NCBI GenBank assembly: GCA_963705255.1
Contig: OY970061.1
Coordinates: 2,400,001 to 2,464,000 of the forward strand
DNA: 64,000 bases
Origin: an uncultured Methanoregulaceae archaeon
Lineage (GTDB): Archaea; Halobacteriota; Methanomicrobia; Methanomicrobiales; Methanospirillaceae
Direction: 5' to 3'
Positions 31,877-51,485 of the stretch are shown in pieces (within the stretch, counting starts at the first letter, position 1; every line of letters starts with the position of its first letter). Below the pieces are notes generated by a model. It was not told the DNA's origin and ran no database searches. It saw only the letters and a list, made by a program, of their open reading frames with translations. The translations under genes were made by a program, and so were the position numbers.

Positions 31877-31881
31877 CGAAA

Positions 31882-33553: not shown

Positions 33554-33676
33554 GGTGACTGGTGAGATTTCCCGGAACGGCAGAGTACCGTGTTCAGACC
33601 AAGCGTCTAAGCCGGGGGTGTCCGATCGGGAATTTTCTCCGGTCCGGGAATTGACGAACTGGGTTCACCAGGCACC
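33554..33676 (-). ncRNA. Candidate structured RNA, copy 2
   Basis: Same terminal stem; inner TTCCCGGA/TCCGGGAA stem; AT-rich palindrome GGATAAATTTATCC ~25 nt upstream. Confidence 0.6.
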
Positions 33677-33763
33677 GAAATATAGATCGGTATGCAAACA
33701 GGATAAATTTATCCAAAGGTATGATGATTACATACTTGGTATATTCCGGTATAAAAGTATGAG

Positions 33764-33938: not shown

Positions 33939-34049
33939 GGAGGGTCTGACGCTCAACGAGGCTTGAAGTGATTTGAAAATCGCTTCTCAAATCTGCCATT
34001 CATTCTGAACGGCAGATACTCCGCCCTAGCAGCGTGGGCTTGCCCTGGA
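33939..34049 (-). repeat. Element C copy 3 (left edge of AT-rich island)
   Basis: CCAGGGCAAGCCCACGCTGCTAGGGCGGAG - two hairpins - TGAGCGTCAGACC. Confidence 0.65.
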
Positions 34050-34117
34050 TGATTAAGCTAAAAATGAAATAATAATTCTTTCGTTCCGATATCGTACAGA
34101 AAATTTAGTTCTAAAAA

Positions 34118-34495
34118 TTATTTTACTAATAGTCCATTCCGCTGTAAAGCGAGAACAACTTCCATTTGTCCATTTTGAATGATCTTTGTTTTAACAACTT
34201 GATTCCATAAATTGTCCTCATTCGAACACGTTGGTTTTTCTTTTAGTATCTTGGCGGCATCAATTGCATAATTTTTGTTTTTCTTAGAATTTGTATATGC
34301 TCCCTTCGGAATCCCATGGATTAATCCAACTTCACAAAGACCCAGAAATGCAGATTTAGGACAACACTTCTTTCTCACTGATTCACTATTCGTCTGGGTT
34401 TTTATTGCTTGTTCCCACGCCTCAATGGGATCCCCCACCTTTTTTTCGGCGAATAACTTGACTGCTAAAATTGCACTATCCCCAAAAATACCCAA
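34118..34495 (-). CDS. DUF6979-like protein
   Basis: AW, KCCPKSAFLGLCE.GLI.GIPKG.Y, KNK.YA, NGQM.VV motifs. Confidence 0.7.
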   Translation of the reverse strand: MGIFGDSAILAVKLFAEKKVGDPIEAWEQAIKTQTNSESVRKKCCPKSAFLGLCEVGLIHGIPKGAYTNSKKNKNYAIDAAKILKEKPTCSNEDNLWNQVVKTKIIQNGQMEVVLALQRNGLLVK

Positions 34496-34545
34496 AATTA
34501 TCACCTCTTTAAATTTTCAATTTTGATATTGATTATCCTTCACGA

Positions 34546-35432
34546 TTAAATTGCTGCATATTTCGAATCTTCAAGACGATATATCTGAATTAATGCTGAT
34601 CCCTCAGCTAGATTGGAATCAGTGAAGGTTTTTAACGGCACTAAATTGTTTTCATCAATTTTGCTTTCCATATACGGTTTTTGGTGTGAACGATAATTCA
34701 TACCAGTTCGCCAACTCTTCGGAATTGGTCTTCGAATGAAAATCGCAGCGCCGAAGACCGGAACGTGCCATTGGGCAGAAGCTCCGACAAAACCTTTTCT
34801 TACAAAATCCACGACACCTTTCGGGCCTTCTTCGGATAATGGAACAAAGTAATGAACATGGCTTAGGATAACATCGACTCCTGGATTCTCCAGCTTATAT
34901 TGTTGGGGTCGTAGGTATCATAACAGATTGCTGGATAAAATCGAATTCCGTTTAAGGAAAAAATTCGTGGTTTCCCTAATTCTCCTAAACGAAAATCGGT
35001 TGTCAGTTTTACACACTTTTTTTTTTCAGTAGTTTTTACTTGATATTTTCTACCAATGGAAATAATTCCGGATTTATCAAGGGAGATTGAAATTTGATCT
35101 TCATCGAACCCTTCACGATTAAATGATCCATCAATTCCAATACTCACGACAATATGCGCTGGAAATTTTTTTAAGCAATTGCTAATTTCTTTTTCAATAA
35201 ACGGAAAAATGGACTCAGCAGGATCTTTACCGGTATGAATCCATCCTCCCGGGAACAAGATAATACCATCCCCAGATATTTCGAATGAAACTTTTTCGAC
35301 GACTCGAAATAACCCTCTGAGTCGGTCTATATTTTTTCCAATGTATGGATTGGTTTCTGAAAATCTATCATCAATTGTTTCGAGAGTTACCGTTGCAATC
35401 CATATTGATATACGAGAACGATCCGAAGTCAT
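34546..35432 (-). CDS. Carbon-nitrogen hydrolase (nitrilase)-fold protein (frameshift at C-run near 34906)
   Basis: IILFPGG, GRKY, AICYD, GVDVIL motifs; catalytic Glu position reads Gly. Confidence 0.6.
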
Positions 35433-35441
35433 ACTGGAAAA

Positions 35442-36122
35442 TTATTGATATTCTACTGGATCCTTGATTCCAGCTTCACGAAATGCGGCTAATCGTTCGT
35501 CACATGACCCACATTTTCCACATGGTTTTTCACCGCCTTTGTAACAAGTCCAGGTCATAGAATAATCCACATTGAGCGACATACCTCGTTTCACGATATC
35601 TCCTTTGGTCATGTGCAAGTATGGGACATCCAGAATTATGTCGCTCCAATCACAAAGATGAAACGCTGTCGTCATTGCGCTGACAAATGCGGGTCGACAG
35701 TCCGGATAAATCGTGTGATCGCCTGCGTGAGCACCATAAAACAGATGGTTCGCTTTTATCCCAATCGCATATGCTGCCGCGATACTGAGTAAAACCATGT
35801 TCCTGTTAGGAACGACGGTCTGTTTCATATTTTCATCTGCATAATTTCCTTCCGGAACGGCCCAGTCCTTCCGAGTGAGTGATGAAGGTGCAATGTCGTT
35901 GAGGATTCCGACATCGATAATTTTGTGAGGGATGTGTAGTCTTTGGCAAATCTTTTGTGCACAAACGATCTCGTTGTTATGTTTTTGATGGTAATCAAAC
36001 GTTACGGCGTTGATTTCATATCCTTGATCGATCAAGTCATAGAGTAAAGTCGTGCTGTCCATGCCACCGGATAAAATGAGAACTGCCTTCCTGATCAATG
36101 AAAATTTATTCGTTTTCGTCAT
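35442..36122 (-). CDS. queC: 7-cyano-7-deazaguanine (preQ0) synthase
   Basis: LSGGMDS, FDY.QKH, VVPNRN, YPDCRP, TWTCY...CGKCGSC motifs. Confidence 0.95.
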   Translation of the reverse strand: MTKTNKFSLIRKAVLILSGGMDSTTLLYDLIDQGYEINAVTFDYHQKHNNEIVCAQKICQRLHIPHKIIDVGILNDIAPSSLTRKDWAVPEGNYADENMKQTVVPNRNMVLLSIAAAYAIGIKANHLFYGAHAGDHTIYPDCRPAFVSAMTTAFHLCDWSDIILDVPYLHMTKGDIVKRGMSLNVDYSMTWTCYKGGEKPCGKCGSCDERLAAFREAGIKDPVEYQ

Positions 36123-36469
36123 GGGATTCTTTTCTAGTATCTTTCATAATGTCTTCAAATTTCACCTTATTTATCTGGTAGATCCGTTTTCTGCCATCGG
36201 TGGGATCCCTTCGCTTAGAGATGTACCGGATTTCCCGAGTTTCGATAAAATTTGATTTGAATATCTTACGTCATGCTTGAGCAGCTTTCTGCATCCGGGA
36301 AAATAAAATCTTCATTCCCAAATTTTGAATGTAACAACGAGAGATCTTTAAGGAGAAATTTGGGAATAAAAACTGCCATGTTGTCCAGAGCAGATTTTAT
36401 TCGAAATATACTTATAGTTATGAGTAGTCAAATCATTAATTAGTCTAATGATTTGTTTGGGTTTTTATC

Positions 36470-37501
36470 ATGTTATCCAGTATCAAAATTATTGAGACGG
36501 CTCATGGAAATTTACAGACACCTGCATTTTTTCCGGTTTATCATCTCAACAAACGGGGAACGGTATCGTGTCCGAAATTTTGGAATGAAATTCCTGAGTT
36601 AAAAACTATGCTCGTCAATGCGCATGGTATAAAAGAATGTAAACGGTTTAAAAAAATTCTCACCCATGGTCTGGATAAACACCTCCACTTTCCCGGGATA
36701 ATTTTTGTTGATAGTGGGGGTCTGCAAAACCGTCTCTACGATTTGAAATTGGATCCATTAGAGATGTTAAGGGTTCAGGAAAAGATTGGTGCAGATATTG
36801 CCGCAACTCTCGATGCTCCGGTCTTTTCAAATGATAATATTTCTTCTATGGATCATTCTGAGCGGATCAGAATCACCATTCAGAATGCTTTGCTCTCGTT
36901 GAAAAATCGTGAACGGGAGGATATGCGACTCTACGCCGTAATTCATGGTAACGAAATTAAAGTCATGACAAACATGATTGATTATCTCAAAAGGAAAGGC
37001 GATTTTGACGGGTTTGCCATTGGGGGCCTGATTTTCAAACGATCGAATTATCGGAGTCTTATTGATCTTGTCATCGCTCTTCGGAAACGAGCCGGCGGTA
37101 AACCTCTACATGTTTTCGGGCTCGGCGGACCGACAATGATCCCTTTGCTGACGTATCTCGGTGTAGATACATTCGATTCATCATCGTTTCTTTCGGTTGG
37201 CTCGAATCGCGTTTATTTTACTCCCGAGCAAGGGTCATGGGAATTCAAAGAGATGCCCGAGATGGAATTTTTACCTTGCGTCTGTCCTGTCTGCAGTAAG
37301 AATACCTTGGAACATGTTCGCTCTGAACGAAGATTGATCGGGATGCACAATTTATGGATGATTTCTTACGAGATTCGAAAGTTGAAAATGCATATTCAGG
37401 AGGGAGACATGGATTCATATCTTGATTATCGGTTTGCAAATAACCCCCAGATAAAAATTGCGTACAAATATGCAAAAGCAAAAATCAGAGGTTTTGTATG
37501 A
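36470..37501 (+). CDS. Guanine transglycosylase (TGT)-family protein without PUA domain
   Basis: TPAFFP, VDSGG, LDAP, AIGGL, HVFGLG, DTFDSSS, CVCPVC...HN motifs. Confidence 0.88.
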   Translation: MLSSIKIIETAHGNLQTPAFFPVYHLNKRGTVSCPKFWNEIPELKTMLVNAHGIKECKRFKKILTHGLDKHLHFPGIIFVDSGGLQNRLYDLKLDPLEMLRVQEKIGADIAATLDAPVFSNDNISSMDHSERIRITIQNALLSLKNREREDMRLYAVIHGNEIKVMTNMIDYLKRKGDFDGFAIGGLIFKRSNYRSLIDLVIALRKRAGGKPLHVFGLGGPTMIPLLTYLGVDTFDSSSFLSVGSNRVYFTPEQGSWEFKEMPEMEFLPCVCPVCSKNTLEHVRSERRLIGMHNLWMISYEIRKLKMHIQEGDMDSYLDYRFANNPQIKIAYKYAKAKIRGFV

Positions 37502-38340
37502 GGCAAACAATGCGTCCGGTCTCATTGAGTCGAGTTGTCGAGACAGCGGATTTCGCGAGAAAAAAAGGAAAATTTAGTAGTAAGGATTTAGCCGAATTTT
37601 TAAAATCTTCACCGTCAAGAGGAAAAGAAATTGCAGAAGAGTCAGTAAATATTGGCATTCTGGCAAAAGAGAATGAGTTTTACATTCCCACAGTGTTGTG
37701 TTCTCTATTCCTTAACGCTCTACGACAAAATGATTGGAAAGGAATTCACCACATAATGATGGATTACTCCTTTTACCGGAAATTTTTTAAAATTCTTGAA
37801 TCGATTGAACCGTCAAATCCGGAAGAGATTCTTTCAGCATTAGGAAAATCAACAATCCCCTTCAATGAGGTTTCCCGTCAGGTTCTCTGCGACTGGGGAG
37901 AGCGTATAGGTTCGGTCCAGCGCAATATTTTCACGAACCAGTATTTTACAATCAGGGATTCAGGTCAGTCAATTATTCCCTCATTCCTTGATACGTACCG
38001 ATCACTGAACGTTAAAACCGGGTTGTCACTTCGACAGAGATATGTCGAGATTCCAAAGGTACGGGAATCTGTTTGCCAGGAATTGAAGATCTCCCGTGAA
38101 AATTTTGATCTGCGTTTCATAGATTTATGTCAAAAAAACATCGGAAAGATCGAACTTGCGGGAGCTCCAGTAACAACCCATGCAAAAAAATCCTCAAAAA
38201 AAGTGAAAAATGTGCAGTTTCTTGAACTTCAAGACAAAATCACGATGAAATTGTCATCGAATCAGTTTCTTAACGGCGTAATGGTTGGAAGAAAATCATA
38301 TTATTTTGTAGCATATCATGGCGGTGAATTGATTGACTGA
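37498..38340 (+). CDS. Hypothetical, probably winged-helix, protein coupled to TGT and ATPase
   Basis: Overlaps both neighbours; HTH-like N-terminus; YVEIPKVRE.VC..L segment. Confidence 0.7.
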   Translation: MRQTMRPVSLSRVVETADFARKKGKFSSKDLAEFLKSSPSRGKEIAEESVNIGILAKENEFYIPTVLCSLFLNALRQNDWKGIHHIMMDYSFYRKFFKILESIEPSNPEEILSALGKSTIPFNEVSRQVLCDWGERIGSVQRNIFTNQYFTIRDSGQSIIPSFLDTYRSLNVKTGLSLRQRYVEIPKVRESVCQELKISRENFDLRFIDLCQKNIGKIELAGAPVTTHAKKSSKKVKNVQFLELQDKITMKLSSNQFLNGVMVGRKSYYFVAYHGGELID

Positions 38341-39514
38341 ATTTTCTCTGACTTTAAAAAATAAAGATTACTCTAAATATGGATTAGCTGGGAATCCCTT
38401 CCCTTTCTCCGGAGTGCCTGACGAACACCCGAGTATCTACATTGGCCAGGATGAAGTGCTCGAACGAATTAATTCTGTTTTGTCTTCGACAGTGTTATCG
38501 CACCAATCAAGCCACCTCATTATTACCGGATCGTATGGGAATGGTAAGAGTCATACCCTCAAATTTATCAAATCCCATATTCGTGACGAATTTTCTGATA
38601 AGTCGCCTAAGAAAATATGCGTCGGTTATGTTTCACAACCCGGGGAGACCTTCCTCGATATATATACGAAATTCATGTACGATCTCGGCTATCATTTCGT
38701 GAAGCAGTTGTCGCAATCATACCTTGGCCAGATCGCGTATCAACTATCCAAAGAGGGTCTGATCGATGCCAAAATCCGTAAAGGCCAAGGGTGGAAACGA
38801 ATAGAGAATGGCGACGTTTTGATATCCGATATTGTTCCCAAGGCTATTGAACGATTGAATGACAGGATTAAGTTCGTAGATTTTACCCGAGCTTTCATCG
38901 CAATGTCGTACGAAGAAAATTCCATTTACTCATGGGAGTGGCTCTGTGGTGAAGGGGTCGAGTACAACAAACGGCACGAATTGTCCCTCGGAAAAAATCT
39001 CAACGATACGAATTCCATCCGTGCATTTGGAGCATTGAAATTTATCCTGGAAGATCTGGACTACTCTTCGATCGTTCTTCTGATCGATGAATTCGAATAT
39101 ATCGAGACGCTCCCCCCGCTCAAGAAGCAGAAATTACTAAATTCACTCCGGCACATCATCGATATGAATGGAGAAGGACTCTCGATGATTATTGCCTGTG
39201 CGCCGGAAGTCTGGCAGACGATTGTCGCCGAGTATCATGCATTTTCCGAACGTATTGCAAAGGAGACGAATCTCAAACCTCTTGACCAGGATAAAATCCG
39301 GTTATTGCTGATGTCGTACCTCAACAACAAAAGAGAGAAAAATCAGAAATCGCTTCTCCCCTTTACTGACGATTCAATTGAAGAGATCTTCCAGATTTCG
39401 CAGGGAAATACCCGTCGTGTGATCTCCCTTTGTAGTCAGGCCCTCGATGCCTCATTGCAATTTAACAAGCCAACGATCGATCGTGAGATTCTTGATTCGG
39501 TAATTGCCGGATAA
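38333..39514 (+). CDS. AAA+ ATPase (BrxD/DUF2791-like)
   Basis: YGL..NPF, Walker A GSYGNGKSH, Walker B LLIDEFE, PFT...GNTR lid. Confidence 0.82.
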   Translation: MTEFSLTLKNKDYSKYGLAGNPFPFSGVPDEHPSIYIGQDEVLERINSVLSSTVLSHQSSHLIITGSYGNGKSHTLKFIKSHIRDEFSDKSPKKICVGYVSQPGETFLDIYTKFMYDLGYHFVKQLSQSYLGQIAYQLSKEGLIDAKIRKGQGWKRIENGDVLISDIVPKAIERLNDRIKFVDFTRAFIAMSYEENSIYSWEWLCGEGVEYNKRHELSLGKNLNDTNSIRAFGALKFILEDLDYSSIVLLIDEFEYIETLPPLKKQKLLNSLRHIIDMNGEGLSMIIACAPEVWQTIVAEYHAFSERIAKETNLKPLDQDKIRLLLMSYLNNKREKNQKSLLPFTDDSIEEIFQISQGNTRRVISLCSQALDASLQFNKPTIDREILDSVIAG

Positions 39515-39564
39515 GAATTGAAATCTAAAATTTTTGAAAGACCAGGAGAACATATTCCAATGTT

Positions 39565-39912
39565 CATATTCCGGGATAATGCAACAATCTTCACGGACAT
39601 CACTGGAAGGTTGAGGTTTGGGTCGATGGGGAAGTTGATGAAAAGACACAGATTGTTGTCGATTACAATACAATCAAGAAAGTGATTGAACGGTTTGACC
39701 ATATGGTAATCCTGAATCGAAAGGACCCAATGATCTCCTGCCTCGAACGATATCAATCGGTCGTATCGGCAGATGGGGATCCAACGAGTGAGCTCCTGGC
39801 TCTTCACTTTAAAAATATGCTTGAAAATGATGAGGATTTCAAGAGGGCTGATGCGAAGGTGACGCGGATTAGAGTTTGAGAATCACCGACGAGTTGTGCG
39901 GAGATCATATAA
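39565..39912 (+). pseudogene. queD: 6-carboxytetrahydropterin synthase pseudogene
   Basis: G*CNNLHGHHW...VDY...FDH...PTSE...RV*ESPTSCA; in-frame stops at 39577 and 39877; N-terminus missing. Confidence 0.85.
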
Positions 39913-39936
39913 AAATCTCATTTTCATTAAAAAAAA

Positions 39937-41926
39937 TCATTGGGAAAAAAATGATTGCCAAAGCTCTTGCAAAAGAATTACTCCGATGACGTGTTCTGCA
40001 TTTTCCCTCTTTAAAATGTAGTTACATCCATAATATGGCCGACTTTGAGAATTTTCTTGAGTGATTTGTTGCAATTCATAGTCCATCAAAATTGCTTGAG
40101 TGTCCCACGCAACAATCAAATTAACCTGATCGAAGTACTTTTTTGACGGTTCTGATTCAGACCGCATCAAAATTTTCAATAATATCATCTAAAGTTACTT
40201 TTACTTCACACCAATGACCGTCTCGTTTGTACCGGTTATGATTATCAAATAATCCTGAATATAATCCCAAGGGGTTGCCCTGTGAATATTCTGTGATAGG
40301 ATTTTTCTCTAATAAATAATTAAAGAAAATATCATATCGGGAACTTGAACCAGGTATTCCATTTACTTTGTATCCTAACAATTTATCTCGGGAAATTAGT
40401 TCGAGAAATAAAGTTAAAACCTCACTTTCATAAATTGGTTCTTTACTTAAAATTTTTGAATTTGTAAGATTTTGGCGATTTGAATTAATTTGTTCTTCGA
40501 GTTCTCGTAGTTGTTGACGTGCAGACGCAAGATCAGTCGTTCCATGTCGGGTTTCTTCACCAACATGGATTAAATTCTTCTGATACCGATTCAGTAGTCG
40601 GTTAATTGATTCATTGATAAATTCAATCAATTCGGTTAGTTCAACGGGATATGTTTTTCTGCCGATATCCGGCCGCAATTTTTCATTAAAATGATACAAA
40701 ACAAAAAGCCTTTTTTGAATTTGAGGAGGTAATGTAACGGGAATTAAATCATTTACAGCACCCACGGGCATTGATGTTGTTCCAATTAAAAAACCACCTT
40801 TTATCTGAATATCATATTGATTTCCATTAAGTGCCCCGTATTTTTCTTTATAATACGTATTTTTATGAGATAAGCAGAAGTAAATTTCGGGCCTATATTT
40901 TTCCAATAGTTCATTGATTTTTTGAAACTTATTGAATCCTTCAATTTGCTCTTGTGTTGAGGATTCTCGCTCTAGACTCGATAAATAATTTCCGAATACC
41001 AGTCGTATTCCATTATAATCTAATTCGTCCCAAATAACTTCGTACTGTCGAGTGACTGAAGTCGTTACTAATGTTGTATATTTTACTTGTTTTCCTTCAA
41101 GTGAATATGAATGAGGATAAAACATGCCCGGCGAAAATAAAATCGGCGTACCATCCGAAATTTCAGATATATATGATAAATAAATTTTACATTGTTTAAC
41201 CCATTCAGGAAGCGATTTATTTATATTTATATAACCTGCAGCTGTTCTCGTCAAAAGAAGATGTTTCCAAAATTCTAATTTATTTCTTCCACCTATCACT
41301 TTAATTTTTTTAATCCCTGATAAATCACCAAATATAATCTTTGCATAGGTACCTTTCGAAGTTGTATCAAGTTTATTTGTAAATAGAATTCTCCTATTTA
41401 GCGGGGGAATTGCAGTCGTTGAAATTTCGTCATGAGGTGTGTTGTGCAACCAAGAGGCACCACCTTCATATTTCGCTTGATTTTTATCAGTTTCACTCAC
41501 TTTCGAGTGAAATTCAATATAATCATGCCCATGTAAAACATAAGTCATTGCAACTCCTTTATGTCCGCGCATTGGAGTCGTATAAATTAAATTTTTCAAG
41601 GATAAATTTGGTTTAAAAACATCTTTGAAATGAGTTGAATCAACACCACATCCGTTATCAATTACTTCTATTAGATTTTGACCAGACCTGGCATCAATGT
41701 TAATTTTAAGCCATGGATATAGGTTATCGTCAGTTTCATCAAAATGAGTTTCGTCTTTCCACCTTTTTTCTAAGGCATCAAAACTATTCTGAACTAATTC
41801 AATAATAATATCGAATTTGTCGTGATAACTATCTACGATATTTTTCACCATTGTGAAATACATCACATTTTTTACATCTTCGGAAATATCCGCGGAATCA
41901 AATGGTAAGAATTGATCATCAGGCAT
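39937..41926 (-). CDS. GHKL ATPase fused to PD-(D/E)xK-like nuclease (frameshift near 40162)
   Basis: ELVQNSFDA, DNGCG, RGHKGV, GT boxes; C-terminal E.EV..LF...YD...EVK...LIVAWD. Confidence 0.75.
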
Positions 41927-42107
41927 TTTTTCCCTCTTTTAAACCTGTTCATTTATTGCTTAGTTTGATTTTTTACACTTTACTCAGGTTCACCTATCTA
42001 TATATTCCTATTTTGAATAGAGCTGGTTTAACAAAAACGAGATCGTAGAACAAAAAATTACTGACGATCTATGCGAGATCAGGTATTTTATAGGATGAAT
42101 AAAAAAA

Positions 42108-42932
42108 TTATTTTGATAGATACTGTCCTAAAGTACTGTTCTCAAACAGTACAGGTTTTTTTATGTGAATCGTGTTGATGTCGAATTTTCCACGATGTAA
42201 TTCCAAATAATTTTCCTTAACCAATTTATTAACAATTTTTTGAAGTATGTCTAAAGAGAGGGTTCCTTTTGAGAAAAATAAATCAAGATCCGAATAGAGA
42301 TTGCTCTCTTTTACAGCATCCATCTCCAATTTATTGAGCACGGTTTCCAAATCTTTCATTGAAAGAAGGTCAATTGCTTTTCCTTCCAATCCTGGGTCAA
42401 ATTTCACTACAGGGCCAGAGGTATAATAAACACTCAAAGATTTTGACCACGATCTTAAACCCCCCTCAGCATATTTATTCAAGCCATGTAGTTTTTTAAT
42501 TTCATCAATAATTTTTTCGTAATCTGAGAACCCTTCTCGAATCATTTTTACAAAATCGCGGAAAACTGCATTATGGCTATACATATTCTTGAAAAAAGTA
42601 AATGAGACAAATGAATCCCATTCACCATTTGCACAACGAGATGCCACTCGTTTGCCAAGTATGCTTAAACTTTCATTTTCGATAAACTCCAATTTTTTTA
42701 ATAATTGAATTTGCGAGGAGATATGCTCACGAGAAACATTTTTAAACAACTCCCCCTCAGTCCTCCTTTTCTTCTCGTTATAAAAATTAAGAATATCATC
42801 TTCAAAATTCTGAAGAGGTTTGGAATCCAATTCAATATTCAGGAGTATTTCAAGAATTTCACAACAAGTACTCATTTTAGTTATTGAAAGTAAATGTTTT
42901 GAGATTTCAGAGGTGTTTTGTCGTAGAGCCAT
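42108..42932 (-). CDS. Hypothetical, probably winged-helix, protein
   Basis: 274-aa ORF abutting the large ATPase gene. Confidence 0.7.
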   Translation of the reverse strand: MALRQNTSEISKHLLSITKMSTCCEILEILLNIELDSKPLQNFEDDILNFYNEKKRRTEGELFKNVSREHISSQIQLLKKLEFIENESLSILGKRVASRCANGEWDSFVSFTFFKNMYSHNAVFRDFVKMIREGFSDYEKIIDEIKKLHGLNKYAEGGLRSWSKSLSVYYTSGPVVKFDPGLEGKAIDLLSMKDLETVLNKLEMDAVKESNLYSDLDLFFSKGTLSLDILQKIVNKLVKENYLELHRGKFDINTIHIKKPVLFENSTLGQYLSK

Positions 42933-45911
42933 TTACGATACCTTATAAGTCGCACAGAGCACATCACTCTCTTCTAAAAATCTCACAAATTCCCTTGCCT
43001 TTTTATCATCCAAGCCAAATTCCTCTCCAATAGATTCGATTGTGTATACTTTATTTGGTTTAAAAAGTGATTTGAAGGTTGGACCCAATCTTTTGAATTC
43101 ATCATCGAGAGTCACTTCAAGGGCTTCATACATTTTTCCATTATTAATCAATGTTCTGCAATTTGCAATTCTCTTATCCATATCATCAACAATTATTTTT
43201 ATTTTTTGAAGGTGGGATTTGTTTAAAAATTGTTCATAACGACGGAGAAGTAGGTTTGCTTCACCATATTTTTCTGATAAAGATTTAATGTGTGCAGTTG
43301 CTCTTTGGCCAAGGTCTGCATAAGTACCATGCAATGTCGATAGTTTCGTCTCAACGATATTGATATTATCACTTTTTCTAATTATTTCCCAATCTTCTTT
43401 CAATTTTTTTTCGTCGAGGTCAAGGACCTTCTTTTTCGATGCAGTAATCAATTCAGCAATATTGAAGTCTTTTAAATCACGTTCTAAATTTTTCCCCTTT
43501 GACGAAAACGCATTATATTTCGCTATCAGTTCCTCAAAAACCGGTTTAGATGCGAGGATGTATTTTTCGAGATCGCTCCGATCCAAACTCTGTTCAAGTT
43601 CCTTATCGAACTTCACTAATTCCTTTTCTAATTGTGAATCTTTGAATTTTAATTTCTTTAAATCTTGAATTGCGGAAGTTAGTGCAGTTTTTCTTGTATT
43701 ATACGTCTGGGAGATTTCAAGGATAAATGATATGAATTTGTTAGACCGTGCAACAACATCCTTTACTCTGACATCGTAGGTATACAGGTTGATAAAATTA
43801 GTGAAAATATTATCAGTAGGTTTGAACGCGGTGATCTCTTTTTTTATCTGAGAAAGCTGATTATCGAACGCGGAGATTTTGCTATCAAATTTTTCAATTA
43901 ATGTATCTCCAGCAACCTCCCGACTTGCTTCAATTGAACTACTCATTTCTTTGGAATATGCAATAATTGAATTATTTAACAATGTTCTTCTATCTTCGAA
44001 CACTCGAATTTTTAAACCATCGGTAATCTGTAATTTTTTTAATAATGAAACTGCAGCCTCGATAGGTCGGTTTTCTGAATTGAGATAAAAGACTTCTTTC
44101 CATAAGTGATCCGGATTAAAAATTCCCCGAGACACAATCTGATTATACCAATAAGGGGTTGTAAAACCAGCACCATCGAAAAATCCACACTCCATTAAAA
44201 TATCAGTATTAATTTTCTGTGTCTCACACTTTGATAAACTCTCTAAATTTTTAATAAATATTTCATAGTCTTCATCATTTTGCAGCTTGGCTCCCAACAA
44301 ATGAGGGATATAGTGCTGCTCCCTATTTTTTTTATAAAATGCATTTATCTTTTCAATTATTGATGTGATTTGAGGGGATATCTCTTCACGCCCTTTGTTT
44401 AACTCACCTACGGACAAGAGATTTTCATCAAACAAAGAATATCGAATCATCATCTCTGGAGATGAAGGTAAGACGAGGATTGCTTCATTCTCACCAACTT
44501 TTTTTGATTTGTTTTCTTTATTCAGGACATATACACAGAAAATGTCCGTACTGGTTTTGGGGTCACTTCCCTTTTTTACAGTAAGAGGAATCTTTGCTTT
44601 TTCACCAGGAATCGAGCATGCAATTTTCTTTGTTTTATTATCAATACTGAAGCGATCGGAACAGTAAGGTAAAATTTTACTCATTTTTTCAACAGCTAAA
44701 TCAAGCTGCAATTCAGGATTTGTTAGGAGACCCTTGCTTGCATATTCCTTGTATTTCTCTCTCGCAGGTCGAGTATCCTTTAACTCTACAAGGTCAATTT
44801 CAGATTCTTTACCTTTTTCCTCATGTTTCTTCGTATCGACGCGATGACTTCCGCTCTCTAACTGCCATTCGTTAACTTTCGCTTTATCAATATCTCCTCC
44901 TCCACGCCGATTTATATAAAAAAGAATGTCATGGCAGTTGATGATAAACTGCCTGAACGAGAAATGATCATTCGAATCTTTTGAAATTTTAATTATAAGG
45001 TGGATACTCTCCCGTGTAAAAGGATTAAAGTCATCGATTCCCGTTGTTTTTATCCTGCTCTTCTCTAACCGGATTTTTACATAATCTAAAGCATCTTGTT
45101 CAGAAAATGAAGATAAGGGAATTATCCGTTTGAGGCGTGTCTCTAATGCGTTATTAATACTATGAATACGCTGATAGGTAATATCGGTCATATAGAGGAA
45201 CAATGCAACAGGGAATTTCTGGTCCTGTTTTCCTTCCTGAATATAGCCAAGTAAATCTCTTAAATATTTCAAATCTCGTTCAATCTGGGATGTTGTCATG
45301 GAGGCCATGCCCCAACGATCTTCGACCTCATCGATATGAATTACGACGCAGTCGTGCCTACCAATCGTCGTAAGAGCATCGATGTACCCGTACCAAGTGC
45401 TCATAAGGTAAGTCGCTCTTCGGAGCTCGTCTTTATTGGATTTTTCAAGTTTTAATTCTTTAAAAGATAATTCCAGAGCATTTTTCAAACAGGTGCTGAC
45501 TTTTTCCTGGTCCAGGGTATTACAGGCAATTTCAAGGCGGTTTACGATTAATGCAAGAATAAAAAACGGGTCATCATAGGTCCCACTTTCCATGCGGATA
45601 TAGATGTGTTCCGTTGATGGGTGGTATTTACGGGAGCGATCTATTAATTTATAAGCGAGATGTGTTTTCCCGGCGGAGGGCTCTCCTTTGACAACAGCGG
45701 CGATAAGTTTCCCGCCCCGTCGGGCCATATCAATGATTTCATCGCCTTGTTTCAATTCCGTTTGTCGTAATAAAGAATCTTCAACAGATATGGTGGGATC
45801 AAACTCTCCCTGAGGTTCAAAAGGAATGTATTTTAGATTTAAATTCGCAAAACCGTTTGCTGATTCTTGAATTATCTTCTTGACCGCCATGATTTCGCCT
45901 GATTTTACCAT
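42933..45911 (-). CDS. Large P-loop ATPase with long coiled coil and C-terminal HTH-like end
   Basis: Walker A GEPSAGKTH, Walker B VIHIDEVE, PFT lid; heptad-rich distal third. Confidence 0.8.
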   Translation of the reverse strand: MVKSGEIMAVKKIIQESANGFANLNLKYIPFEPQGEFDPTISVEDSLLRQTELKQGDEIIDMARRGGKLIAAVVKGEPSAGKTHLAYKLIDRSRKYHPSTEHIYIRMESGTYDDPFFILALIVNRLEIACNTLDQEKVSTCLKNALELSFKELKLEKSNKDELRRATYLMSTWYGYIDALTTIGRHDCVVIHIDEVEDRWGMASMTTSQIERDLKYLRDLLGYIQEGKQDQKFPVALFLYMTDITYQRIHSINNALETRLKRIIPLSSFSEQDALDYVKIRLEKSRIKTTGIDDFNPFTRESIHLIIKISKDSNDHFSFRQFIINCHDILFYINRRGGGDIDKAKVNEWQLESGSHRVDTKKHEEKGKESEIDLVELKDTRPAREKYKEYASKGLLTNPELQLDLAVEKMSKILPYCSDRFSIDNKTKKIACSIPGEKAKIPLTVKKGSDPKTSTDIFCVYVLNKENKSKKVGENEAILVLPSSPEMMIRYSLFDENLLSVGELNKGREEISPQITSIIEKINAFYKKNREQHYIPHLLGAKLQNDEDYEIFIKNLESLSKCETQKINTDILMECGFFDGAGFTTPYWYNQIVSRGIFNPDHLWKEVFYLNSENRPIEAAVSLLKKLQITDGLKIRVFEDRRTLLNNSIIAYSKEMSSSIEASREVAGDTLIEKFDSKISAFDNQLSQIKKEITAFKPTDNIFTNFINLYTYDVRVKDVVARSNKFISFILEISQTYNTRKTALTSAIQDLKKLKFKDSQLEKELVKFDKELEQSLDRSDLEKYILASKPVFEELIAKYNAFSSKGKNLERDLKDFNIAELITASKKKVLDLDEKKLKEDWEIIRKSDNINIVETKLSTLHGTYADLGQRATAHIKSLSEKYGEANLLLRRYEQFLNKSHLQKIKIIVDDMDKRIANCRTLINNGKMYEALEVTLDDEFKRLGPTFKSLFKPNKVYTIESIGEEFGLDDKKAREFVRFLEESDVLCATYKVS

Positions 45912-45952
45912 TGATGATGTTAATTGATTAATTTTTTTAAGTTGTTTTTAAT

Positions 45953-47354
45953 ATGAAGTGTGAGAGACACTATGTCGTGACATCGGATTTATCATCAGAT
46001 GCTTATGATACATCGCGGTTAGGTATTATCATCCGTGATTCTGAGGGTGCATTTTACCAATCCAGAATCGAATGTGAAAAAACCGTCCGGCAAATAGAAT
46101 CTGAACTGGATCGGCATGCACTTCTTATCGATCCCGAAATCTCAAATCCGAATCCTGAAACAAAAATAAATTATGTAGCGATTGACGGAACGCGGGATAT
46201 TCTCGAAGGTCAGACTCATGCGCGTCTGTTCGCAGGGGCATTTGCGGTGTATGGAGAATTCAACAAGACCGTGGATATCACAGAAATTCAACGTAGTTGT
46301 GCTTTCAGTGTAGTATCATTGCCTTACAAAATATTGACATCCGGAAATGATTACATTACAGAGAGTGCAGGTTCTGTTACGAATCTACTCATGCTTTTAG
46401 CGGAAATTTATGTTGCAAAAACATACGCTGATAATGATAGCAAGGATCTTGATTTAATATTACTCGATCGCCCCCTCTGTGGGACGCTTGCACATACTCG
46501 CACCGCCCTATCCCCGCATAGTATTCTCAAAAAACTGGGAGCTGAAAAATATTCAAAATGACAAAAATCTCGATTCAGCTATTCCCATTTTTGAAGATAT
46601 TTGCAAACGGCTATTTGTTGAATCGCTTGCGGAACCTCTTAAAATTGAGGGGGAACACCTGTCTTCCGATGATCTAATGTATCTTTGTCGGGTGGGAATG
46701 AATGCCTTGTTCAGGATCTGTAAAGAGAAAAATATTGAATTGATCGGGGTCACAAAGACCACGAATGACTGCTCCTTTTTACGGTTATTGATAACACTGA
46801 ATGCGATGGAAGGTCGCGATACTAAGAAAATCTATAAAATTCTCTCCCAGATCGATGATTGCAAAATGCTCGGCAGTTGGATTAGTCCCTATCAGAAACT
46901 TGTCTGCACAAGGGAGTATGATACTGCCTTGATGACGATAATGGTTGACGAGTCAAAAAAATTGAGAGAACTTGGGGGTGGGGGGCAGGTTCCCCAAAAA
47001 CTGATTGTGCGTTCATACATGAGTTTTGGGTTACCAAACAAGGGGGGATTTATTTTTGCTGTTGAGCGACTGGTTTTGAAAAATGAAAAATCATCGACTA
47101 TCATGTTACCCAAAAATACCGAAATTTACCTCTATGCAAAAGAAGGAAATAAAAGCCAGTTAAACATATTTCATCTTCTCAAAAACATGTGCACCGGGGC
47201 ATTTCCCGAAGCATTGTACTATCCGCTGCCCCTTGCACTCGCACATAGGTTTGCAAAATCGAATTTTGATTATATCAGGCCCCGGTTAAAGGCAACAAGC
47301 CGAGTATTCGGAACAGAGTACGGGTTTAATGACCTGAAGAGAGAGTTCACATGA
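45953..47354 (+). CDS. nurA: NurA-family nuclease (frameshift near 46550)
   Basis: VAIDGT, LILLDRPL, IGVTK, YPLPLALAH..AK motifs; overlaps the herA start. Confidence 0.75.
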
Positions 47355-49168
47355 CAGAAGAGATTATTGAACCGTTCAGAAACGTCGGTCGAGTAATTAA
47401 GATTACCGGAAGTGGATCGTCTACCCTGGTGGAAATTTTCTTTCCCTATACTAAAGAAGCAATTACGAATATCCGGGAAGGAGCCTTCCTGGCTCTAGAA
47501 AATGTTCGATCGACATCCCAGAAACGAATATATTCATTATTCAATGTTGTCAGTTACGATGTTTTTCATTCGGGATTATCTGATTTAGATCCGACCAAAG
47601 TACCCTTCCCTGAAACGGTCATTGAAGTGGCATCCCGTGCCTACAAAGAACTTGTGGAAGGGATGCCGGATAAGATCAGTCTCGCGGGAATCAAGGTTCG
47701 GTGCATTCCTGCGGGATATGAGATTATCGACGATGACGCCTTGACAATCAATCCCAGTAATGAAAAGCCACTCATTGGAACTGAAGTGTACAATCCATCT
47801 GAAAAAATTTTAGATAAAATGTTCAATCGTGGACTCTCTAAAGAACGCGGCGCCATTGAGATTGGGCATTATCATCATGGTAACAATAAAATCGAAATTC
47901 TCCTTGATCCAAGAAGGTTAGTTCAGCATCATATTGGTGTTTTTGCGTCGACGGGCGCTGGAAAAAGTTTCTTGATTTCTAATTTATTAAAAGAAACTCT
48001 TGACCAAGGGATACGGAGTATTGTTTTTGACACCGTCCCTGAATTTCCAGCATTATTAATTGATGTCATTCACGAATATTCTTCAAAATATAACGACGAT
48101 TACAAAACCTCGATAATTTTTAGAGATCGGCAGGATATTGCAGCAATCAGTGATCCTGAAAAATTAATTGGACGTATGACCATCCCGGAAACAATCAGAA
48201 ACAAGCACCGGAATAAATTGCTTAGCATCATGTCAAACTCCCGGTTTTTATCGGATCCGGTTCCAAAAATAATGCTACCGTTTTTAACCTCAACTGAAAT
48301 TATTAACCTCGTAAATTATACAATGTCAATAAAACGACTTCCTCAGGCAGAAACTGTTGCTCAGACTATCGAGCAGTTAATTGAGGATAAATATCCTGAT
48401 GCGATTTTTGCAGGAAATGTAAGAAATCTCGACACCTATGTGACAGATTATACTCATATTCAGAAAGTTTTTGATATAATCCTTAGTGAGCAAAACCGTA
48501 TCGGTGATGATAAGGATATCACCTACAAATTCTACGATACAGTTTATCAGATGTTGCGGAATAAGGCCGACCGCCGTGATCGCGAACTCGAATTGTATCT
48601 GTCTGAAATAGATCAACTCAATATTAAGAAAAACCAGGTTACAGAACCCCGCAATCTTGTACGACCATTGATTGATGGGGATAGTAAACTGCATATCGTA
48701 ATTAGTGATACGACAGACGAGACAAAACACCTGATCTCAAACTCCATATCAAATGCATTCTCTCTGCAAAAAGGAAAAGCAGACAAAAGCCTGATGTTTG
48801 TTGTCGATGAGGCGCATAACTTCGCGTCAATAGATCCCACACCCAGCTCTAAGGCTCTTGAAAAATTAGCACGGGAAGGGAGGAAGTTCAACATTGGATT
48901 ATGCATGGCCTCACAACGATGCACTTACCTCAATACAAGTGTTATGGCTCAATTGAAGACCTATTTTATTAGCAACCTCAGGATGAAAACGGATAGAGAT
49001 CGGATCCGTTCTATCTTCGATATTAATTCTGAGATTCTCGATAGTTCCGCAAACTTAAGCGGTCAAGATTGGTATCTCGTATCGGAAGTTGCAACGGGAC
49101 TCCGAAATACTCCCATGAAAATCCGTGTTCATGATGTAAACAAGAGGATTGAAGATTCAATAAACTGA
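47351..49168 (+). CDS. herA: HerA-family ATPase/helicase
   Basis: HAS-barrel-like N-terminus; HIGVFASTGAGKS, VVDEAHNF, REGRKF, ASQR motifs. Confidence 0.88.
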   Translation: MTEEIIEPFRNVGRVIKITGSGSSTLVEIFFPYTKEAITNIREGAFLALENVRSTSQKRIYSLFNVVSYDVFHSGLSDLDPTKVPFPETVIEVASRAYKELVEGMPDKISLAGIKVRCIPAGYEIIDDDALTINPSNEKPLIGTEVYNPSEKILDKMFNRGLSKERGAIEIGHYHHGNNKIEILLDPRRLVQHHIGVFASTGAGKSFLISNLLKETLDQGIRSIVFDTVPEFPALLIDVIHEYSSKYNDDYKTSIIFRDRQDIAAISDPEKLIGRMTIPETIRNKHRNKLLSIMSNSRFLSDPVPKIMLPFLTSTEIINLVNYTMSIKRLPQAETVAQTIEQLIEDKYPDAIFAGNVRNLDTYVTDYTHIQKVFDIILSEQNRIGDDKDITYKFYDTVYQMLRNKADRRDRELELYLSEIDQLNIKKNQVTEPRNLVRPLIDGDSKLHIVISDTTDETKHLISNSISNAFSLQKGKADKSLMFVVDEAHNFASIDPTPSSKALEKLAREGRKFNIGLCMASQRCTYLNTSVMAQLKTYFISNLRMKTDRDRIRSIFDINSEILDSSANLSGQDWYLVSEVATGLRNTPMKIRVHDVNKRIEDSIN

Positions 49169-49230
49169 CTTGATAAAAATAAACAATACACAAATTTATT
49201 CCCTTTTTCTATCTAATGTGTGAATGAATC

Positions 49231-50968
49231 ATGCGTTTCTTCATTCCCGAATGGGACGACCGGGTAGACCCTGGCTACGATTTTCATTCCGATATGCACT
49301 CCCCGTCTCATAAGGCGAACCCAACAAAAAATGGCGCATACATGTGGGATATATTTGGAATAGAGAACATGCCTTTTGATGGTGTTCTGGTTTCAATCGC
49401 CACATTACAACAAAATAAGACGAAATACCAGTCTCTTCTCGGATCCGGAATTCACGAATTGCTTCACCTTCCAAAAAAAATTGAGATTTTAGCAGATTGT
49501 GGAGCATTCTCTTACATTGATAAAAAAATTCCCCCGTACAGAACCTCTGATGCCCTTAAACTCTATCGTGACGGTGGATTCGATTACGGTGTGAGTGTCG
49601 ACCATTTAGTTGTCCCAATGTATAAAGAGCAGAATCAAGCGAGGATAAAAATCACGTACGAGAATGGGGTTGATGCTTTTCAACTGTGGAGAAAAAAGTA
49701 CAAATCGGACTTTCAATTAATTGTCGCCGTCCAAGGATCGGAAATTAATGATTATATCAACATGTTTGATAAGTTCTATAAAAGGGGAATTCGCCATTTT
49801 GCATTCGGAAGTCTGGTTAGGGCTCCAACTTTTTTTATCATCAAACTCATAACAAGCCCTCATGGAAAATATTAAGTCAACCAATAAACATCCAGAATTC
49901 ATACATTTTTTCGGAGTAGCCCGATGTGCTCTTTTTCCAAAATTCAAGGAACTTGAGGAACTCACAGGAATTCAAGTTTCTTTTGATTCCGCCTCGTATC
50001 TGAGAAAAGCTTGGTTGACTTCAGCAAATACGCAATTCAATTATATTGATCAAGCATGGGAGGGTTACTCAGCAATTCGGATCCCCCCAAAACTTTCACG
50101 ATCGAAGGAAGAAAATCTCGATCATACTGAATATGAGATGATGTCTCAAAAGTGTCTAGAAGCATTACGAAATTTTGACGATGATAAAATTAGTCTTGAT
50201 GATGCACTGAATGAATTAAAAACATTCATCGAAAAAAGAAAGGACGATCCAAAATTACTCTCATATTACGAACGAACTCTAAAGTCAAAACCCTGGAAGA
50301 CCTGTCCCTGCCCGATTTGTAATGATATCGGAATAGATGTTATGATATTCCGAGGAAATAATCGTAACCGCCGCCGTGGTTTTCACAATATTTATACCTT
50401 CAATCAATTGGTGAAAGACAATTCTAAATGGGGAATATGCCAGAAAAAAGAAACCGCTAGACGAATGAAATTACAAGAAAGAACAAACCTCGAATTCCTG
50501 AAAAAAGGAATGAAGGTCTTAATCATCACAGCATGCAGTAAAAACAAACTCGGCTGTGATAGCTCAATATCAGCTCCAGCAAAAGAAATGTACCTGGGCA
50601 CACTCTTCAAAAAAGTGAAATTATATGCAGAAGTAATGAAATTCGAATATAGGATAATCTCAGCAGAACATGGCCTGGTAAAACCCGATCAAGAAATTGA
50701 AGGTTACGATAAAAAACTTCGAACGAATGGAGATATCGAATATATTCGGCCAGGTGTCGAAGAAAAGATTAGAGAAGAATTTTCTCACTATGATAAAATC
50801 GTTGTAGTTGCTGGAGAGAAATACCGGGAAGTTTTAGTGAATGTTTTCGATGAGAGATTTTATTTTTTGAAGGCAAGAGGGATCGGAGATCTTATCAGTA
50901 TAGTTTCAAAGGCGATTCCGAAACATAAATCATTGAGCAATTTTTTGGTTTCTGAAACAAAAGAATAG
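49231..50968 (+). CDS. dpdA: DNA-guanine transglycosylase DpdA fused to DUF6884 (extra A near 49851)
   Basis: FFIPEWDDRVDP.YDF, DGVLVS, DCGAFSY, SVDH, QG, SFDSAS, CPCPIC, FRGNNRNRRRGFHN; tail CSK.K, A.EMY.G, ISAEHGLV. Confidence 0.88.
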
Positions 50969-51010
50969 GATTTTCAATAAGGTTTGTAGAAATGGACATT
51001 CCAAAAACCA

Positions 51011-51063
51011 CCCAGGACCAACCTATTCAGCAAGTGGCTCCGGCCCCGTTCGCGCCAGACCTC
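51011..51063 (+). repeat. Element C copy 4 (degenerate, inverted; right edge of island)
   Basis: CCCAGGACCAACCTATTCAGCAAG...GTTCGCGCCAGACCTC aligns to both ends of copy 3. Confidence 0.45.
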
Positions 51064-51252
51064 TCACGCTTTCGTCTTATACACCCGCTCGTATTGTAAA
51101 ACAAGATTGCCCTTTTCTTCCTTGACAATCAGCCGGAAAACATCGCCTGGATTAATTTTGACAGACTTAACCACGTCAGATGGAATAGTGAGGTCGAGAG
51201 AATTGGAACCATAATGGAACCGGGACTTGACGATACTTTCCCTCTCAACCAT
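51064..51252 (-). CDS. AbrB/MazE-like DNA-binding protein
   Basis: GSNSLDLTIP..V.....I.PGD motif. Confidence 0.8.
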   Translation of the reverse strand: MVERESIVKSRFHYGSNSLDLTIPSDVVKSVKINPGDVFRLIVKEEKGNLVLQYERVYKTKA

Positions 51253-51325: not shown

Positions 51326-51360
51326 TTTATTTATTCTCATCTCATGCAAATCTCTACACC

Positions 51361-51485
51361 GATGCCTGGTGAACCCAGTTCGTCGTATCCCGGATAAATA
51401 AAATAATCCCGAGTGCCCGCCCCCCGGCTGTAGACCTCGAATCTTACGTGGCACTCATTCGTCCGGGAAAATCTCACCAGTCACC
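51361..51485 (+). ncRNA. Candidate structured RNA, copy 3
   Basis: GATGCCTGGTGA...TCACCAGTCACC; TCCCGGAT/GTCCGGGA and GAGTGCC/GGCACTC stems; TTTATT upstream. Confidence 0.6.

Follow-up and report, generated by a model that had tools for sequence, protein, structure and literature searches.

A candidate archaeal Dpd-like 7-deazaguanine DNA modification-restriction island with a conserved two-transglycosylase core in a Methanoregulaceae genome

The 64,000-nucleotide (nt) stretch of DNA analysed here (the window, whose numbering is used throughout) covers positions 2400001-2464000 of contig OY970061.1 in assembly GCA_963705255.1, the single-contig, 2.6-Mb genome of an uncultured Methanoregulaceae archaeon with an estimated completeness of 89.5%. 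From its gene content, we consider it likely that an AT-rich block within this window is a horizontally acquired defence island with an archaeal backbone resembling the Dpd system of 7-deazaguanine DNA modification and restriction. The conserved unit is a five-part core consisting of the DNA-guanine transglycosylase DpdA, a DpdC-like DUF6884 domain, a second, archaeal TGT-like transglycosylase (TGT2), a protein with three winged helix-turn-helix (wHTH) domains (u280) and an AAA+ ATPase. Judged by sequence comparison, this is a real, conserved variant of Dpd-type modification-restriction that is new as a gene set, and its probable function is to label host DNA with 7-deazaguanine, by which helicase-nuclease modules would distinguish it from invading DNA.

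A preliminary description made from the window alone had proposed a possibly undescribed archaeal Dpd subtype in which marking is coupled to a NurA-HerA pair and a GHKL-nuclease. The non-canonical archaeal subtype stands, but NurA-HerA and GHKL as its motor and nuclease set are not supported in that form: the proposed unit of DpdA, NurA-HerA and GHKL was not borne out, and what is conserved in its place is the five-part core.

Conservation of the core

We used the ATPase of 393 amino acids (aa) as a query, which gave 7 loci in genome contigs and 17 genomes in a 401-genome sample of the phylum; up to 40 kb was fetched around each match and 24 regions, the window included, were compared. Within the 401 genomes the ATPase and the DpdA part were each found in 17 and both together in 15, while six more genomes match the DUF6884 part only. 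Of the 24 regions, 22 have all three of TGT2, u280 and the ATPase (the trio); G096 has u280 and the ATPase only and G150 a weak ATPase relative only. The stretches fetched include DpdA with DUF6884 in 19 of the 24 cases; in G328 it lies 20.5 kb away, and regions L018 and L019 stop short of the place where dpdA would be expected. In haloarchaea the parts form a contiguous five-gene string in the order DpdA, DUF6884, TGT2, u280 and ATPase, with the five parts contiguous in L024, G270, G335, G110, G148, G245, G390, G058, L108-L112 and L114.

A metagenome scan with u280 as the query returned 36 loci, many on short contigs (L082 may be the same record as the genome locus L020, and L105 the same as L021). 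TGT2 was adjacent in 34 of these, the ATPase in 33, and DpdA with DUF6884 was present in 12. The recurrence of the trio together with DpdA and DUF6884 in two archaeal classes rules out a chance pile-up of genes. Of the co-occurrences put forward earlier for checking, that of DpdA with the ATPase of the trio holds in 15 genomes, and the cassette with the NurA-like gene and HerA is seen in 4 of the 24 regions.

DpdA and DUF6884

The candidate marking gene is split in the window. Its two halves match positions 1-219 and 221-409 of the PADLOC DpdA model (3e-36 and 2e-38), and G004 and G031 (573-583 aa) and L020 and L023 (573-580 aa) each have DpdA-DUF6884 intact as a single open reading frame (ORF). 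With the NCBIfam DpdA model NF041059 the G004 orthologue reaches 301.5 bits, above the equivalog cut-off of 200, and it matches Salmonella Montevideo DpdA (7ui4) over 389 residues with an E-value of 2.8e-46. It keeps the residues aligned with 7ui4 Asp95, Asp130 and Asp256, and has Gln in place of His181; the roles of all four are described in PMC10164549. The window's DpdA carries the same motifs as the G004 orthologue.

The earlier statement that the block has no DpdC appears to be wrong in substance. The DUF6884 part of the window gene (DUF6884 match 6.6e-19) also matches three PADLOC DpdC models, weakly and over about 50 residues (7e-7, 1.7e-4 and 2.2e-3), and the relationship is a published one: according to the Pfam authors, who name CxxxK and LSAxxG motifs, DUF6884 is distantly related to YaaA/PF03883 (PMC11701544), and DpdC has been placed in the PF03883 family (PMC12839542). 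The window's CSKNK and ISAEHG fit these motif types. PF03883 (DUF328) itself gave no match to the DUF6884 part at E<=0.01.

Fusion of DpdA with DUF6884 is the arrangement in the Methanomicrobiales; haloarchaea have a longer DpdA (716 aa) with DUF6884 after it. The DpdA match of G110, G390, G245, G148, G058 and G335 falls within an open frame of 965-970 aa, so the two may be fused in those haloarchaea as well, with separate ORFs in L024. A genome of the same genus as the window's host (L016/L010, G019:C6) encodes DpdA (421 aa) and DUF6884 (175 aa) in two separate genes about 4.5 kb from each other, and the trio was not detected in the stretch fetched from it. In L023 (L023:16380-17285) and L106, a gene for an OGG-type 8-oxoguanine DNA glycosylase (OGG_N 4.7e-20) directly follows dpdA and stands between it and an inverted HerA-NurA-like pair.

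TGT2, u280 and the ATPase

TGT2 matches the Pfam TGT family (7e-39) and the archaeal TGT (arcTGT) model TIGR00432 (1.2e-54, under that model's cut-off), and aligns with Pyrococcus horikoshii arcTGT (1iq8) over residues 11-334 (2.6e-38). It retains the aspartates of the VDSG, LDxP and FDS motifs along with a CxCxxC...H site, which we take to be the catalytic residues and zinc ligands of arcTGT. However, at 343 aa versus 582 aa in 1iq8 it stops before the C-terminal domains and has none of the PUA type; the missing part is presumably the tRNA-binding PUA domain region. The genome has a housekeeping arcTGT of 491 aa elsewhere. The viral relatives of TGT2 are only 22-37% identical to it.

An AlphaFold2 (AF2) model of u280, with a predicted local distance difference test (pLDDT) score of 86, consists of three winged helices and a small beta domain. 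Foldseek ranked the multi-wHTH structures SelB WH1-4, RPC62 and FokI highest, all as weak matches and none at E<=0.001, and a sequence-profile search of the PDB gave single-wHTH hints only. On the strength of the model, we tentatively predict a DNA-binding protein with three wHTH domains. The family is rare: a search of 1.84 billion representatives gave 156 at E<=0.001. We rejected a DUF4007 assignment: 0 of 114 family members match PF13182, hhalign against three DUF4007 proteins gave a probability of 0.15%, and DUF4007 occurs in 2 of the 401 genomes, none of which has the trio. A complex prediction for TGT2 with u280 scored 0.01 against a mark of 0.32, with alignments of 9 and 10 rows, respectively, and speaks neither for nor against an interaction.

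The 393-aa ATPase is similar to BrxC/BrxD (Pfam BrxC_BrxD 2.2e-11; PADLOC BrxD 1.8e-9) and to KAP and ORC-type ATPases, and its Walker A (GNGKS) and Walker B (LIDEFE) motifs are invariant in three orthologues. The core appears not to be viral, since this ATPase has no match in the 2.9 million viral contigs.

Proposed mechanism

In the scheme that we favor, QueC, with the housekeeping pathway, would supply preQ0, which DpdA would swap for guanine in DNA; the fused DUF6884 domain would process the DNA-borne nitrile in the manner of DpdC, which yields the amide. TGT2 may be a second DNA transglycosylase, with the wHTH protein aiming it at a sequence and the AAA+ ATPase driving it, so that u280 and the ATPase would serve TGT2 as DpdB serves bacterial DpdA. 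Helicase-nuclease modules would then attack DNA without the mark. We propose this role for the trio by analogy with the ATPase requirement of DpdB (PMC10164549), the SspB/SspC reader-motor pair and the BREX-related capture (BRC) proposal, the last two of which are taken up below.

Boundaries and gene content of the island

The GC content of the block at 34-52 kb is 0.33-0.42 compared to 0.55-0.60 in its flanks, in agreement with its earlier description as AT-rich. Inverted repeats, one of 66 nt with 76% complementarity and one of 45 nt with 82%, stand on either side of it, and the GC drop together with these repeats argues for a foreign origin. Four direct copies of the repeat family lie upstream (27674-33511) at irregular spacings of 0.9-2.8 kb, and a 300-nt pair of the same family, 92% identical, lies downstream (51461-51760 and 54202-54501); the ORFs that overlap repeats have no Pfam match. 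There are no tRNA genes in the 64-kb window and thus no tRNA-linked integration site was found in it, nor was an integrase found in the subset of flank ORFs scanned.

All ORFs of at least 120 aa in 34-51 kb and four shorter ones were scanned with Pfam, PADLOC and NCBIfam. The island genes span 34118-50968 (Table 1), and the preliminary inventory was essentially right: DpdA, a second TGT, QueC, a QueD remnant, a nitrilase fold, HerA and two ATPase/partner pairs (the 393-aa ATPase with u280, and a 992-aa ATPase, A992, with u274) were all found.

Table 1. Features of the island and its bracketing repeats, in window positions.
Feature	Position	Strand	Remarks
Left inverted-repeat arm	33545-33708		Pairs with 51329-51494; brackets the AT-rich block
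DUF6979 protein, 128 aa	34118-34504	-	Intact; Pfam DUF6979 3e-42
Nitrilase-superfamily-fold gene	34546-35432	-	Two pieces (189-aa and 88-aa ORFs)
QueC (7-cyano-7-deazaguanine synthase)	35442-36122	-	Intact second copy
MarR-like wHTH gene remnant, ~90 aa	36112-36379	-	Divergent from TGT2; two shifts
TGT2, arcTGT-like	36470-37501	+	Intact; catalytic domain only
u280, tandem winged-helix (three wHTH) protein	37498-38340	+	Intact; start overlaps TGT2 stop
AAA+ (BrxC/BrxD-, ORC/Cdc6-like) ATPase, 393 aa	38333-39514	+	Intact
QueD pseudogene	39568-39906	+	PTPS 1.2e-21; one TGA and one TAA in frame
GHKL ATPase with C-terminal D...ExK region	39937-41926	-	Frame-broken near 3' end; window-specific insertion
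u274, partner of A992	42108-42932	-	Intact; no recognised domain
A992, P-loop ATPase, 992 aa	42933-45911	-	Intact; long helical C-terminal part; AAA_22 weak
NurA-like gene	45953-47354	+	Two pieces in window; probable assembly error
HerA/FtsK-type ATPase	47351-49168	+	Intact; Pfam DUF87 1.4e-14; PADLOC HerA 1.3e-34
DpdA fused to DUF6884 (DpdC-like)	49231-50968	+	Split by one extra base at ~49853-49855
Right inverted-repeat arm	51329-51494		Pairs with 33545-33708

Beyond the core, the island contains QueC, and nitrilase-fold, QueD and small wHTH genes stand beside the core in some relatives. The island QueC is canonical (Pfam QueC 1.3e-69; 219 bits on TIGR00364, where the cut-off is 150) and not QatC-like (28 bits on the QatC model, where the cut-off is 280). 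The housekeeping QueC is at genome position 2237245, and the housekeeping QueC and QueD copies both lie at ~2.237-2.239 Mb. As first noted, the island QueD is a remnant; it is 82% identical to the intact 133-aa QueD of L019 and has two in-frame stops and a lost N-terminus. The remnant of the small wHTH gene matches 90-aa ORFs of L018 and L019 in three frames, the L018 copy having a weak MarR match, and the gene is present in 23 of the 36 metagenome loci. Homologs of the DUF6979 protein adjoin QueC or the trio in L018, L020, L021 and L022 and in 3 of the 36 metagenome loci.

The nitrilase-fold protein has no Pfam match, and its intact 294-aa orthologue from L018 has no meaningful match in a PDB sequence-profile search. 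The AF2 model of that orthologue (pLDDT 84, predicted template modeling (TM) score 0.88) has Nit2 as its best Foldseek match (1e-10, probability 1.00, TM ~0.55) among 213 at E<=0.001, and those listed all belong to the nitrilase superfamily (Nit2, amidases and nitrilases). This superfamily uses a Glu-Lys-Cys triad. Lys128 and Cys169 are invariant in 18 sequences; FPGG stands in place of the usual Pro-Glu motif, which leaves no residue that can be assigned as the catalytic Glu.

Defence-type genes also lie downstream of the island: a protein with Schlafen AlbA_2 and HATPase_c_4 domains at 54718-56172 (5e-22 and 3e-19) and a YhcG/DUF1016 PD-(D/E)XK nuclease at 59893-60984 (8e-64). The immediate flanks encode an RNase III-domain protein (31882-32592, 2.5e-11), a weak GIY-YIG match (32625-33083, 4e-4) and a weak GNAT match (53430-53990, 1.4e-5). 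GNAT is a component of BRC, yet this one sits outside the AT-rich block.

State of the island in this genome

Several observations weigh against reading the block as a Dpd-like defence island. Six of its genes (dpdA, NurA-like, nitrilase-fold, GHKL, small wHTH and QueD) are frame-broken or interrupted by stops, and with dpdA among them the window copy may not work. Elsewhere in the genome, four large genes for aminoacyl-tRNA synthetases are open and stop-free over 462-1123 aa, which suggests that the assembly is not uniformly error-ridden. Further, the window has no member of the two commonest effector modules of its relatives: with the G004 proteins as queries no UvrD-like or PD-(D/E)XK partner was found genome-wide, and no DpdJ-type helicase was found either, the DpdJ model giving partial helicase-motif matches only (best 1.3e-8). 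A DNA role for TGT2 is one that we infer, and the closest family is that of a tRNA enzyme, arcTGT. The co-occurrence is overstated because related genomes are not independent, and 24 of the 36 metagenome loci are without DpdA; these loci are mostly short or end inside the effector block, making them uninformative rather than contrary.

The window copy is damaged or mis-assembled: dpdA and the NurA-like, nitrilase-fold, GHKL and small wHTH genes are split relative to intact homologs, with break sites at ~34899-34908, 36225, 36290-36311, 40158-40163 and 49853-49855; the doubtful sites in QueD are at ~39577 and 39880. At ~34899-34908, in the nitrilase-fold gene, the window has C4 where L018 has C5, and GHKL homologs read through into an 83-aa ORF that lies in another frame of the window. 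The balance between an intact and a decayed island in this genome is roughly even. That it is a decaying, non-functional relic, with the marking enzyme and several partners as pseudogenes, is a reading to which we give somewhat less than an even chance. The 17 kb holds at least six frame shifts over five genes in addition to the two nonsense codons and lost N-terminus of QueD, and substitutions to stop codons are atypical of consensus errors; the intact synthetase genes and the absence of the UvrD and PD-(D/E)XK pair point the same way.

To examine the breaks, contigs (Logan) of four public runs were aligned to 34000-51100. Base 46544, in the shift zone of the NurA-like gene, is missing in all four (including a run with 35 contigs, each at least 99% identical to the window), so that break is an assembly error or private to this assembly. 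It is the one break clearly covered by the runs, the X1 depth being 0.26-1.15 in the bins of the other sites, and its absence from the runs speaks against decay. The close relative L018, whose ATPase is 94% identical, is frame-broken too, in TGT2 (L018:8137-9169) and in its A992 orthologue (L018:12043-15035), and indels of the long-read type may be a frequent error in such assemblies; a completeness of 89.5% for a single contig also fits indel errors. Moreover, the broken genes other than QueD have no further stops or deletions, and a redundant QueD can decay harmlessly because a housekeeping copy exists.

Variable effector modules

The helicase-nuclease genes that accompany the core vary from one relative to another. 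A UvrD/PcrA-like helicase with a Cas4/RecB-like PD-(D/E)XK nuclease is found in 10 of the 24 regions (UvrD in 5 and the nuclease in 4 of the 36 metagenome loci). A DpdJ-like block, composed of a DEAD helicase, an MZB/DUF1998 protein, a PD-(D/E)XK-SF1 fusion, a HEAT protein, a 1118-aa ORC/SMC-like ATPase and a 268-aa partner, is complete in 3 of the 24 and partial in G270, with parts in 11 of the 36 metagenome loci (MZB in 10, DpdJ in 8); the DpdJ-like gene is in G031 (PADLOC DpdJ 5e-68), G368 and G343. The A992-u274-NurA-like-HerA cassette occurs in 4 of the 24 regions, with parts in 3 of the 36 metagenome loci, and the window's GHKL gene in the window alone, with none in the 23 other regions or the 36 metagenome loci. 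The coupling to NurA-HerA and GHKL described earlier is therefore at best a minority arrangement, and the core's conserved partners, UvrD with PD-(D/E)XK or a DpdJ/YprA-type DEAD block, belong to the helicase classes that had been noted as missing.

In L018 and L019 the NurA-like gene is an uninterrupted ORF of 463-467 aa, and in L023 too it runs on in one frame. Its assignment to NurA is backed by protein-language-model features (ESM Atlas), by which all 30 of the best 30 clusters are NurA (score 0.93), but not by the Pfam NurA model PF09376, which left it unmatched in the ORF scans and in a six-frame genome search (E<=1), or by a PDB profile search, which gave no meaningful match. The protein conserves an IDGTRD motif, which we take to be the NurA catalytic motif. 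The single Pfam NurA match in the genome (genome positions 299104-299859) is borderline (21.2 bits, 1.7e-4) and falls in a 780-aa frame far from the island. A992 belongs to a narrow family of 11 clusters of 888-997 aa, with PF01637 and PF13191 as the only precomputed Pfam domains. It is conserved together with u274 in L018 and L019, and u274 has no Pfam, PADLOC or NCBIfam match. Pairwise BLASTP of A992 against the 1118-aa ATPase of G031 (A1118) found a P-loop match only (E 0.02), and of u274 against the 268-aa partner in G031 (u268) nothing useful. A relationship between u274 and u280 was considered and not supported (hhalign probability 0.66%).

The GHKL gene had been called a GHKL-nuclease fusion. 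The GHKL head was recovered weakly (HATPase_c_3 4e-4, below the cut-off; family profile against Hsp90 N-domains 7e-6), while the nuclease part comes down to a D...ExK motif (D534, E574 and K576) invariant in nine homologs. These are 643-672 aa long, and the two with organism names are actinobacterial. L024 and G110 have a different GHKL family, and pairwise BLASTP of the window's protein (GHKL589) against the haloarchaeal 770-aa GHKL gave nothing useful.

We regard it as unlikely that the NurA-like-HerA genes with A992 and u274, and perhaps GHKL, form a dedicated restriction arm that replaces the helicase-nuclease pair of the relatives. The cassette does lie in or beside a Dpd-like locus in two arrangements, one between the ATPase and UvrD/DpdA (the window, L018, L019, L085 and L086) and one downstream of DpdA and inverted (L023 and L106). 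In the window it separates the two halves of the core, directly upstream of dpdA where relatives have UvrD and PD-(D/E)XK; HerA directly precedes dpdA here and apparently in the public contig X2, and the A992 family is narrow. However, the cassette is infrequent, L018, L019 and L085 carry it together with UvrD, and all of the cassette loci compared were recruited through the trio. GHKL is a one-off insertion, and its two homologs with organism names are actinobacterial.

The 19.8-kb contig X2 joins position 39904 to 42110, skipping the 2205 nt of the GHKL segment. It is ~96% identical to the window over the cassette (296 differences over 7185 nt), the trio region aligns in patches only, and the match continues past HerA to take in 63 nt at the start of dpdA, so the X2 lineage appears, like the window, to have no UvrD and nuclease between them. 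The cassette at 42110-49294 is likewise ~96% identical in X2, X6 and X7, contigs from three different studies, and the trio is far more diverged. Cassette similarity set against trio divergence suggests that the cassette moves on its own and has spread laterally in recent times. Taken with the GHKL skip in X2, it points to the cassette and the GHKL gene as separate mobile insertions into a Dpd-like backbone.

Alternative roles of TGT2

It is improbable, though conceivable from the gene set, that the core comprises two distinct DNA transglycosylase machines, in which DpdA-DUF6884 would write and mature one mark and TGT2 would be an ATP-driven, sequence-scanning writer of a second mark or a guanine excisor on unmarked foreign DNA. 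If TGT2 excises guanine (base-excision restriction), the haloarchaeal string of five genes would by itself amount to a modification-restriction system derived from two TGT paralogues.

Quite improbable, too, is that TGT2 with its wHTH and ATPase partners modifies protein or RNA, or acts as a regulatory or sensor module, with no DNA mark: a TGT-family enzyme reported to put deazaguanine onto a nucleotidyltransferase in CBASS-type systems (10.64898/2026.10.19.760177) and the greater closeness of TGT2 to tRNA arcTGT (1.2e-54) than to DpdA (2.8e-9) would fit it, but TGT2 lacks the arcTGT part after the catalytic domain, shows translational coupling to the genes of a multi-wHTH protein and an ORC/BrxC-like ATPase and is tightly linked with them to DpdA, and the island QueC is not QatC-like. 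No locus was shown to have the trio while truly lacking DpdA; G096 has u280 and the ATPase only.

Comparison with known systems

The island is most readily compared with the Dpd system of S. Montevideo (dpdA-K; PMC10164549). The two have in common a DpdA above the equivalog cut-off, a presumed preQ0 dependence (QueC) and an ATPase gene beside a transglycosylase, with a domain that is probably related to DpdC and with DpdJ-type helicase blocks in relatives of the window. Unlike Dpd, the present system has archaeal hosts, DUF6884 fused to or beside DpdA instead of DpdC, and an additional TGT of the arcTGT kind, accompanied by wHTH and AAA+ proteins. The scans of the island ORFs found no DpdB/ParB/DndB, the adjoining ATPases being of the AAA+/BrxC-BrxD type, and none of the DpdD-K restriction genes, DpdJ included; the earlier remark that DpdB, SNF2 or DEAD helicases and PLD genes are missing holds for these ORFs.

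BRIGADE (Bell et al. 2025 preprint, PMC12458937) is described as a Dpd-like system of halophilic archaea only, with a deazaguanine cluster, two YprA-like helicases and PLD or PD-(D/E)xK nucleases. It resembles the window in being archaeal and Dpd-like and in its 7-deazaguanine genes. In contrast, the window comes from a methanogen, and its island has no YprA/DpdJ-type helicase and no PLD or PD-(D/E)XK family match; the available part of PMC12458937 does not mention a two-TGT core. The haloarchaeal relatives, some with DpdJ-like matches nearby, may be BRIGADE loci, while the window is not.

BRC combines a TGT, a tripartite wHTH protein, an active NTPase, a large BrxC-like ATPase and a HerA/FtsK translocase, and its authors propose that the NTPase stands in for DpdB (PMC12839542). 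The island shares this TGT, tripartite-wHTH, NTPase and HerA theme through TGT2 and HerA. However, BRC is reported, in the text available, to have no DpdC homologs (PMC12839542), whereas the core here includes DpdA and DUF6884. Neither the island ORFs nor the A983 orthologue of A992 in L019 match PglZ or the BrxC homolog DUF6079, GNAT is absent from the island, and u280 differs from the DUF4007 tripartite wHTH protein of BRC.

Two further likenesses are partial. SspABCD pairs a triple-wHTH SspB with an ORC/Cdc6-type SspC, proposed to scan DNA and place the modification enzyme (PMC10853773); the likeness to a multi-wHTH reader with an ORC-clade AAA+ ATPase is one of working principle only, as its chemistry is phosphorothioation rather than base exchange. 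As in the HerA-NurA end-resection pair and HerA-based defence (PMC12977600, PMC11472057), the HerA gene follows and overlaps a nuclease-like gene, but here that gene is unmatched by Pfam NurA, is coupled to the 992-aa ATPase and its 274-aa partner, and lies in an AT-rich island rather than with Mre11-Rad50.

These comparisons agree with the initial view that no defined system is matched in full: BRIGADE and BRC partly anticipate the theme, and the island gene set fits neither. We found no description of a DpdA-DUF6884 and TGT-wHTH-AAA+ core in the literature on DUF6884 or on archaeal, haloarchaeal and methanogen DpdA, though the supplements of PMC12458937 and PMC12839542, which lie outside the text available, may contain such loci.

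Significance

To date, 7-deazaguanine in DNA has been described for bacteria, phages and archaeal viruses (PMC10164549, PMC6884629, PMC10516641). The loci compared here place a DpdA-type enzyme, fused to a DpdC-like domain, in a conserved cellular system of methanogens and haloarchaea, together with a second, arcTGT-derived transglycosylase that has its own putative targeting proteins and with at least three swappable helicase-nuclease arms. Cultivable haloarchaeal carriers make direct testing possible. If the mark is confirmed, DNA deazaguanine modification would extend to archaeal chromosomes, the core would show how a tRNA enzyme can be recruited to DNA, and the varied loci would offer a natural experiment on one self-mark read by different effectors.

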